DNA of 64,000 nt from NCBI RefSeq assembly GCF_056712565.1, contig NZ_CM160072.1. One strand, written 5' to 3'. Below the pieces are notes generated by a model. It saw only the letters and a program-made list of their open reading frames with translations. It was not told where the DNA came from and did not search any database. The position numbers and the translations under genes are program-made. How positions within the stretch are numbered: the stretch's first letter is position 1; each line of letters begins with the position of its first letter. This document shows positions 48,583 to 50,075 of this stretch, one piece after another.

Positions 48583-50075
48583 TCAGAACTTCTGTTTTTT
48601 CTCTTCCACCTTCACCCCTTGTGTCGGTAAACCGGTGTCATAGTCGCGTACCACTGGAGAATAACCATCCTGTGGGCGTGGACGAAACGCCCCCATCCAG
48701 CGCGGTTGTGCATCTTTGCGCCACGGACGCAGGTTCCATTGATAACTGCGGAACGGATCGCGAATTTTGTCCATGTAATCCAATAAGGCGTCATGCATTT
48801 TGCTGCGAACGTCGGCAAAATGGATATCATCGATCAGGTTATGCATTTCATTTGGGTCATTACGGCGATCGTAAAGTTCATCACTGGTGAAGAGGTTGAG
48901 CACCAGTTTAAAGTCATCCGTTACCCAGCAACGCACCGGAATAAAACCGCCAAAGCTGTCATGCTCAATCTCGTAGCGATTAAATTCCACCAACACGCCA
49001 CGTGGTTCTTTTACGGCAAGGATATTTCCCCCGGCAGAATCTCTGGTTTTTCAATATCTGCCAGCGCCATCATTGTCGGCAGTAAGTCAATATGACTGAC
49101 TGGCGTATCGACCTGTCGCCGCTCCCCTTGCGGCGAACGGATGATCAGCGGAATGCGGGTGATGTCGTCATACATCGCCGCTCCTTTACTGATCAGCTTA
49201 TGTGCGCCCATCATTTCGCCGTGATCGGAGGTATAAATAACCCACGTATTTTCACGTTGCTCTGGCGTTAAGGCGTTGATGACCCGTCCGATTTGGTCAT
49301 CAACAAAGTCATTGCAGGCAAAATAGAGCGGATGGTGATAAAGCCCGTCATCACCGACTGGCGATGGCATCGCCTGCGCCCATAAGCGGTGATGTTCCGG
49401 TTTGTTCGCCAGGTCATCCTCTGCTTTCTCACCCAGTTCGTAGTAAAAATCAGTGTATTTCTCTAAATACTCCACCGGACAGGTGAACGGGTGATGCGGC
49501 TCATCATACGAAATCACCATCAGGAAAGGTTCGTCGGCGCGCGCGGGCTGTTGCAGAAAATCCACCGCCCGATTGCTGATGCGGTGCGCCCAGGTGAAGG
49601 TTTCGTCAATATGGTTCGCCTGTAAATCCTCAACGCTGTTTAGGCCATTGCGCCACAGGCTAATCTCTTTCTCCGTCAGTTCACTAAGATAGTTCGCGCC
49701 ATCGAACCAGTAATCAGCGTCCCACTCCGGCGGACACTCGCCAGTGCCGAAATAGTCATGTCCATCGAGATGCCATTTGCCGATGTAGCAGGTGTGATAG
49801 CCCGCATCCTTAAAGTAGCGCCCCATGGTGGAAATGTTTTTGCCCGGCGCGACGTTGTTGGTCCACGGGCCGGACTGGTTAGCGTAGATACCGGTGAATA
49901 GTCCGGCCCGTGCAGGTGTACAAACCGGTGAACAGGTGTAGGCAGAATTAAAGCGAATACCTTCTGCCGCCAGACTATCAATATTTTGCGTATTCAGCGG
50001 CTTACCGCTATAGCAACCGACCATATTGGTGGCCTGGGTATCGGTCATGATGAACAGAAAATTGGGGCGTTTCAT
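48583..50075 (-). pseudogene. yidJ: Sulfatase yidJ interrupted by a 1-bp frameshift in a C5/G5 homopolymer (plus-strand 49028-49032)
   Basis: N-terminal 354-aa ORF (49011..50075) and C-terminal 137-aa ORF (48583..48996) are consecutive parts of one sulfatase in different frames; span is 1493 nt, one short of a multiple of 3. Confidence 0.7.

Follow-up and report, generated by a model that had tools for sequence, protein, structure and literature searches.

The frameshifted sulfatase gene yidJ of Escherichia coli ST95, a probable inherited pseudogene

The type I sulfatase gene yidJ, at positions 48583 to 50075 on the minus strand of the 64,000-nucleotide stretch of DNA analyzed here (the window; contig NZ_CM160072.1 of RefSeq assembly GCF_056712565.1), is, very probably, a true unitary pseudogene that the E. 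coli ST95 clonal complex has passed down vertically. The window is E. coli chromosome of the ST95 complex, phylogroup B2, and its gene order is emrD / yidF-yidG-yidH / yidJ-yidK / yidL. An earlier note on this DNA had put forward three explanations for the split gene: sequencing error, genuine pseudogenization, and slipped-strand phase variation. One clonal complex supplies 125 complete genomes, each assembled independently, with the same lesion, and PGAP calls the gene "frameshifted"; this excludes the first of these explanations and bears out the second. Phase variation is unsupported as a mechanism, the tracts being 3 and 5 nt long and the allele stably inherited. Relative to intact orthologues a disabling lesion is present, and it is common to one clade and follows the polarized SNP genealogy.

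The yidJ reading frame and the missing base

Straight translation of 48583–50075 on the minus strand meets a stop at codon 355. The N-terminal ORF (49011–50075, minus strand) encodes 354 residues with a complete Sulfatase domain, the last four residues (ISLP) being out of frame, and is ended by the premature TAA at 49011–49013. The C-terminal coding remainder lies in a shifted frame at 48583–49024 (minus strand), and a mechanical ORF of 137 residues runs over 48583–48996 on the same strand from a GTG start at 48996. Because the difference between 50075 and 48996 is 1079, which is no multiple of 3, the two ORFs are in different frames, and the earlier description of the gene as split into ORFs of 354 and 137 residues therefore holds. 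Pfam PF00884 matches residues 4–341 of the 354-residue ORF with 244.3 bits against a cut-off of 25. The C/S-x-P-x-R formylglycine motif of type I sulfatases is intact in this ORF as C52-T-P-A-R56 (49908–49922, minus strand, read from the translation), a Cys-type signature. The PF16347 (SGSH_C) match is divided over the two ORFs, the 137-residue one having the end of the SGSH_C-type C-terminal subdomain. An uninterrupted ORF over the N-terminal domain and the C-terminal subdomain is absent, the frame being lost after codon 350.

The K-12 protein YidJ (b3678), a "putative sulfatase/phosphatase," is the ortholog, with the same yidL / yidKJ / yidHGF context and the same CTPAR motif, and both proteins have no N-terminal signal sequence (the Pfam match starts from residue 4). 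The window gene measures 1493 nt compared with 1494 nt in K-12; it is one A short in an A4 run and has its stop at codon 355. Pairwise alignment with K-12 contains a single gap, K-12 reading CTGCCGGGGGAAAATATCC and the window CTGCCGGGGGAAATATCC. On the coding strand, intact alleles read CCGGGGGAAAATATC (G5A4), whereas the window has G5A3. This alignment places the lesion in the T3 run at 49025–49027 of the plus strand (A3 on the coding strand; T4/A4 in intact alleles). The C5 run at 49028–49032 of the plus strand (G5 on the coding strand) is unchanged with respect to intact alleles. The earlier note had mapped the break to this C5 run; the run itself is there, but the lost base belongs to the adjoining T run. 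With two abutting homopolymers, the missing base is not deducible from one sequence alone.

A sixth C does give the continuous reading ...EILPGGNILAVKEPRGVLVEFNRY... that had been predicted, and the same 497-residue protein is found in two natural isolates, AF18 and AHB12, in which the C5 run is the site of a frame-restoring +G. The native peptide, however, is EILPGENILAV, not EILPGGNILAV. Putting back the A gives a 497-residue protein with ...EILPGENILAVKEPRG... that differs from K-12 YidJ at 8 residues (489/497 identical); with a G added instead, the frame is likewise restored, at the cost of a Glu350-to-Gly change. The route implied by the earlier note, in which a G6A3 ancestor of the frameshift arose by an A-to-G change and then lost a G, was rejected because the clean G6A3 genomes (n = 2) fall within the G5A3 genomes, and G5A4 is the allele of the outgroups EC67 and SK1144 and of the basal genome BCE049.

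One A:T pair was lost from the A4 run after G5 (coding strand ...CCG GGG GAA AAT..., codons 348–351), which shifts the frame after Glu350 and leads to the stop at codon 355 and a 354-residue protein. In this product the formylglycine motif and the N-terminal sulfatase domain are preserved, and ~147 C-terminal residues are missing. Because phmmer alignments of YidJ to solved S1 sulfatases (residues 2–444, E values of 1e-38 to 5e-46) extend to residue ~444, the residues lost by the frameshift are part of the conserved fold, with which ~90 of the ~147 align. Judged from its sequence, the truncated protein is predicted to be inactive; an inactive product would mean that a YidK-YidJ route, which would take up and desulfate a sulfated substrate, is off in the ST95 lineage. 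The one-base deletion is the sole lesion in the window gene. Between the repaired gene and K-12 there are 50 synonymous and 8 nonsynonymous differences (dN/dS 0.039, similar on either side of the break), and between it and the B2 strain EC67 only 3 nt differ. The loss is recent, since there is no other lesion (dN/dS versus K-12 of 0.04).

Distribution of the lesion and competing explanations

Tract alleles were counted in 5115 complete E. coli genomes with allele-specific 73/74-mers, for which one difference takes identity below 99%. The frameshifted allele G5A3 is carried by 125 genomes, the intact allele G5A4 by 4509, and a third allele, G6A3, which is in frame and encodes E350G, by 2. With the intact 74-mer in 4509 genomes and the deleted 73-mer in 125, the split of yidJ is no chance ORF artefact. 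All of the carriers of the G5A3 73-mer that were examined belong to the ST95 complex, and nearly all sampled members of the ST95 clone carry the frameshift. The full 1493-nt gene is 100% identical in UTI89, S88, IHE3034, NU14, APEC O18, ATCC 11775, strain "ST95-32," and others, amounting to at least 30 of the 125 G5A3 genomes, and 25 kb of the window (36000–60999) are 100% identical to APEC E18055 O2:K1:H7. PGAP/RefSeq annotates yidJ as "frameshifted" in all ST95-type records examined, including UTI89 and ATCC 11775, and the truncated 354-residue product occurs on at least 1000 contigs of a large protein collection. The gene is an ordinary clone-specific pseudogene that is already annotated as such; full-text literature searches found nothing on the yidJ lesion of ST95. 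In one paper yidJ appears only in a list of what is enriched in gut-associated clade II strains.

To count "core ST95" we used a C-to-T marker in adeQ, which is present in 121 genomes. The marker is only a rough bound because 121 is smaller than the 128 genomes with an ST95 yidJ allele of any of the three kinds; five of the genomes in this gap are probably EV36 K-12/K1 hybrids. The EV36-family hybrids (EV36, KMS2001, KMS2005, and mutants) have the ST95-type frameshifted yidJ, which indicates that their K1 donor DNA reaches the region near oriC.

That the window carries a sequencing or assembly error, the strain's yidJ being really intact, has a negligible probability. Homopolymer indels are the commonest assembly error, many purported pseudogenes are artefacts of such indels (PMC11017572), and one ST95-type assembly considered below, GCA_024546725.1, shows errors of this kind nearby. 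Nonetheless, the same 73-mer comes from 125 complete genomes and many laboratories, the full gene is identical in at least 30 of them and the truncated product recurs on at least 1000 contigs, and the yidJ allele tracks the local SNP genealogy.

Slipped-strand phase variation, in which the G5/A3-4 tract would be a contingency switch turning yidJ ON and OFF at high frequency, is also improbable, if less so. It agrees with the three tract states within ST95 (G5A3, G5A4, and G6A3), with in-frame states on at least three separate branches, and with the location of net 1-bp length changes: the 60 ST95 sequences that match best over 25 kb show three, two at the yidJ tract and one in adeD (UID2404240036). 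Contingency genes of Neisseria, Haemophilus, and Campylobacter likewise have mononucleotide-run frameshifts within an ORF and are ON or OFF among related isolates. Their homopolymer tracts are typically at least 7 nt long and switch at 1e-2 to 1e-5 per generation. Unlike these genes, ST95 yidJ has runs of 3–5 nt, far under the ~7–8 nt of known homopolymer switches, and its OFF state is stably inherited, with ~3 ON among ~128 genomes. No long simple-sequence tract was found in yidJ; the runs at the lesion are G5 and A3, and the longest run anywhere in the gene is A6. The ratio of about 125 OFF to 3 ON, with OFF inherited along the genealogy, implies that switching is rare on the timescale of the clone. 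Moreover, the 41.5 kb around yidJ contain, besides this one, 18 G/C runs of exactly 5, as well as 165 runs of at least 5, none of which varies in clean assemblies, and the ST95 marker SNP count of 121 leaves no surplus genomes for other tract lengths.

Recoding, by which full-length YidJ would be made through −1 ribosomal slippage on the G run (tRNA-Gly from GGG to GGG) or through transcriptional slippage, appears less likely still than phase variation. If the P-site tRNA moved by −1 on CCG GGG G, it would still pair perfectly and be in the right frame, as read from the sequence, and the product would equal the PGGNILAV protein of the six-G allele. However, there is no X XXY YYZ heptamer: the zero frame is CUG CCG GGG GAA AUA, on which only single-tRNA slippage on GGG is conceivable, and the 85 nt downstream are no more stably folded than shuffled sequences, with a minimum free energy of −19.3 kcal/mol compared with a shuffle mean of −18.7 (z = −0.20). 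The arrangement is also derived and found in one clone only, with a plain ORF in 4509 genomes, and if recoding were efficient, frame-restoring mutations in the DNA would be superfluous. An inherited pseudogene remains our preferred explanation of the window allele.

In-frame alleles within ST95

The comparison of tract length across isolates that the earlier note had proposed revealed rare variation within ST95, including the predicted six-C allele. Among the ~128 ST95 complete genomes there are three in-frame tract variants on separate branches, and one further case is an assembly artefact. Exact matches to the A-repaired ST95 yidJ among complete genomes number only 2, APEC O1 and BCE049. The G6A3 genomes are those of the UK blood isolates AF18 and AHB12, in which an intact 497-residue YidJ is annotated and the flanking proteins are identical to those of UTI89.

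These genomes were placed by comparing ten ST95 loci over 41.5 kb around yidJ and, for seven, over another 50 kb upstream, with SNPs polarized by the B2 strains EC67 and SK1144. At one site BCE049 alone among the ST95 loci is still ancestral, and it lies on a long private branch; most simply, its G5A4 would be the ancestral intact allele. APEC O1 has three derived SNPs in common with the frameshifted ATCC 11775, one of them also with the window, and the G5A4 of APEC O1 is therefore nested among G5A3 genomes. The derived yidK SNP at 50196, carried by the window, ATCC 11775, and APEC O1, marks a subclade within which APEC O1 is nested. AHB12 has four derived SNPs in common with the frameshifted genomes FDAARGOS_1301, AH20K059, and/or NCTC11151, relatives that a 25-kb similarity ranking had foreseen. 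AF18 is without these four and has one derived SNP that is common to all others except the frameshifted UTI89, so that its placement above UTI89 is a matter of a single SNP.

On this genealogy, the most parsimonious history has one −A in the ST95 stem, which would have occurred once, after a BCE049-like lineage branched off. It would have been followed by at least three later repairs within ST95: +A in APEC O1 and, independently, +G in AHB12 and in AF18, the latter two yielding E350G. The +A of APEC O1 would be a true reversion. Reversion of yidJ in APEC O1, AHB12, and AF18 is likely, as read from consensus assemblies only, and the nesting of the three in-frame ST95 genomes among frameshifted ones is a sign of rare reversion and not of classical phase variation.

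No further indel was seen in AF18 or AHB12 over the 91.5 kb compared, of which the 41.5-kb part alone has 165 homopolymer runs of at least 5, and an isolate of the same accession series is G5A3. A further G6A3 candidate, GCA_024546725.1, found via the protein collection, was rejected: it has six +1 homopolymer insertions in 21.5 kb (in G6, T8, T6, G5, G5, and T7), which spuriously "repair" yidJ and break yidF and uhpC. One of these insertions lies in yidF in the same context (GGGGGAAAT to GGGGGGAAAT), indicating that over-calling of G5 in a yidJ-like context is an error mode of some long-read assemblies. The A4 of APEC O1, an old assembly, could be a finishing decision, and what looks like independent reversion could instead reflect short-patch recombination, with a BCE049-like genome as donor or with exchange between AF18 and AHB12. 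Intact ST95-type YidJ occurs on at least 1000 contigs; this count was set aside as evidence of reversion because an identical protein can be encoded in other B2 lineages by DNA that differs at synonymous sites.

Neighboring genes, an independent ST131 lesion, and the loss of yidJ

The earlier note had regarded yidF as a truncated sulfatase maturase and the whole module as possibly decaying. The first part stands insofar as YidF (165 residues; 47330–47827, minus strand) is homologous to the C-terminal half only of an anaerobic sulfatase maturase (TIGR03942; PDB 4K36). Its match to TIGR03942 (anSME) has E = 7e-22 and 78 bits against a cut-off of 349.45 and covers positions ~160–245 of the 363-position model plus a C-terminal stretch, and it aligns to residues 176–370 of the Clostridium anSME (PDB 4K36). 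A Pfam search of YidF gave no match, the homology coming from NCBIfam and PDB searches. The Cx3Cx2C motif of the radical-SAM core is absent from the 165 residues, the profile match beginning at position 160 of 363. CQACDWHRLC of YidF aligns with CKKCKWFRLC of 4K36, and the subsequent Cys positions are not all kept. YidF is best compared with the sulfatase-maturase pairs AslA/AslB and YdeN/YdeM of E. coli and with the Clostridium perfringens anSME (4K36): it aligns to the C-terminal (SPASM-region) half of the anSME, and its gene has one for a Cys-type sulfatase nearby. Unlike these maturases, YidF has no radical-SAM core and scores well under the family cut-off; as a conserved short protein it stands alone, its gene being cotranscribed with those of two DUF202 membrane proteins.

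As a sign of decay, the shortness of yidF carries no weight. K-12 has the same 165-residue YidF, and homologues of 165–178 residues, down to ~41% identity, are found in E. marmotae, E. albertii, Citrobacter, Superficieibacter, Leclercia, and others. Short YidF is an old form maintained across Enterobacteriaceae genera and, therefore, no evidence of recent module decay. The idea that the whole module is decaying is likewise unsupported by the other neighbors, as yidK, yidH, and yidG are intact, with dN/dS versus K-12 of 0.07, 0, and 0.07, respectively; that of yidF is 0.30. The DUF202 membrane proteins are encoded by yidG (47824–48186, minus strand) and yidH (48176–48523, minus strand), and yidF overlaps yidG by 4 nt in E. 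coli. The sodium:solute symporter gene yidK (50072–51787, minus strand; Pfam SSF, and NCBIfam PRK10484 with 854 bits) overlaps the yidJ start by 4 nt. Divergent from yidKJ is yidL (51954–52820, plus strand), for an AraC-family regulator (Pfam HTH_AraC, HTH_18, and AraC_binding).

The solved S1 sulfatases that align to YidJ include S1_30 (9IHK), an exo-2S-iota-carrageenan sulfatase (6PT4), and a Bacteroides "yidJ" (2QZU). These enzymes are periplasmic or secreted and have leader sequences, their chains aligning from about residue 25, whereas E. coli YidJ is without a leader.

Several other differences were recorded in the neighborhood. In the window and all B2 loci examined, 48 bp (48535–48582) separate yidH from yidJ, compared with 592 bp in K-12 that include yidI, for a 149-residue membrane protein. 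Between ivbL and ysdE, 157 unrelated bases (45815–45971) replace a K-12 segment of 690 bp with istR-1/istR-2 and the tisB toxin gene; neither tisB nor istR is annotated in ST95 records. Similarity to K-12 stops inside the 3′ end of yidL (~52814–52820), where window YidL has 288 residues (ending ...NTDR) compared with 297 in K-12, and the glvGBC genes of K-12 are absent after yidL, yidE coming next directly. The 6-phosphogluconate phosphatase gene yieH is a pseudogene in UTI89 through a 5-bp insertion (locus 15393–15397) and in AF18 through an internal stop (locus 15201), and is intact in AHB12, APEC O1, ATCC 11775, and FDAARGOS_1301. Strain-private changes are a frameshifted cbrA in EC67 (locus 10310–11408), a frameshifted adeD in UID2404240036 (locus 716–2481), and an in-frame 15-bp deletion in adeQ of BCE049 (locus ~34560–34574). 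APEC O1 has a private AAAAA insertion between pstS and glmS (locus near 29330) relative to the other ST95 loci, an assembly-level reading. At 55790 (G versus T) and 45824 (A versus T; yidJ-coding strand), the window differs from all other ST95 loci compared; these are private SNPs of the window sublineage, which includes APEC E18055.

A 1-bp indel in yidJ is likewise fixed in another pandemic B2 ExPEC clone, ST131 (strains 81009 and SK1144). The ST131 frameshift is independent: a +C at about nt 331 (GGCACTGG to GGCACCTGG), near codon 111, leaves a 120-residue N-terminal fragment, in contrast to the −A at codons 350–351 in ST95. In SK1144 (locus 19010–20504) yidJ is split by the same +C. The +C 73-mer is present in 411 complete genomes, in whose annotation the gene is either a pseudogene or divided into two sulfatase CDS; among them is strain 81009, a published ST131 C1-M27 representative (PMC5823992). 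The different lesions in ST95 and ST131 indicate that two pandemic ExPEC clones lost yidJ independently.

It is conceivable, though we regard it as doubtful, that the loss is adaptive instead of neutral, inactivation of a cytoplasmic sulfatase benefiting extraintestinal pathogenic clones. Two major B2 pandemic clones each lost yidJ through different lesions, and the gene had been under strong purifying selection beforehand (dN/dS 0.04). Yet there are only two such events, neutral lesions hitchhike with clonal expansion, literature searches found no yidJ phenotype, and the apparent ST95 reversions argue that the function is sometimes favored. Equally tentative is our suggestion that yidJ is a "reversible pseudogene" under fluctuating selection. 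One −A would have been followed by at least three restorations in that one 8-nt G5A3 tract (one +A and two +G, the +G events giving a new E350G enzyme), with a separate loss in ST131, and the cytoplasmic sulfatase might then have come under selection repeatedly in pandemic extraintestinal E. coli.

As found, the ST95 yidJ frameshift is a routine lineage marker, useful in practice as a clean indel specific to the clone. Should the reversions be real, loss of yidJ would be tolerated or favored in most ST95 niches and the function occasionally reselected. If selection lies behind both the reversions and the ST131 lesion, yidJ-yidK would be a candidate locus of niche adaptation and could mark the use of a sulfated compound from host or diet in the gut as opposed to extraintestinal sites.
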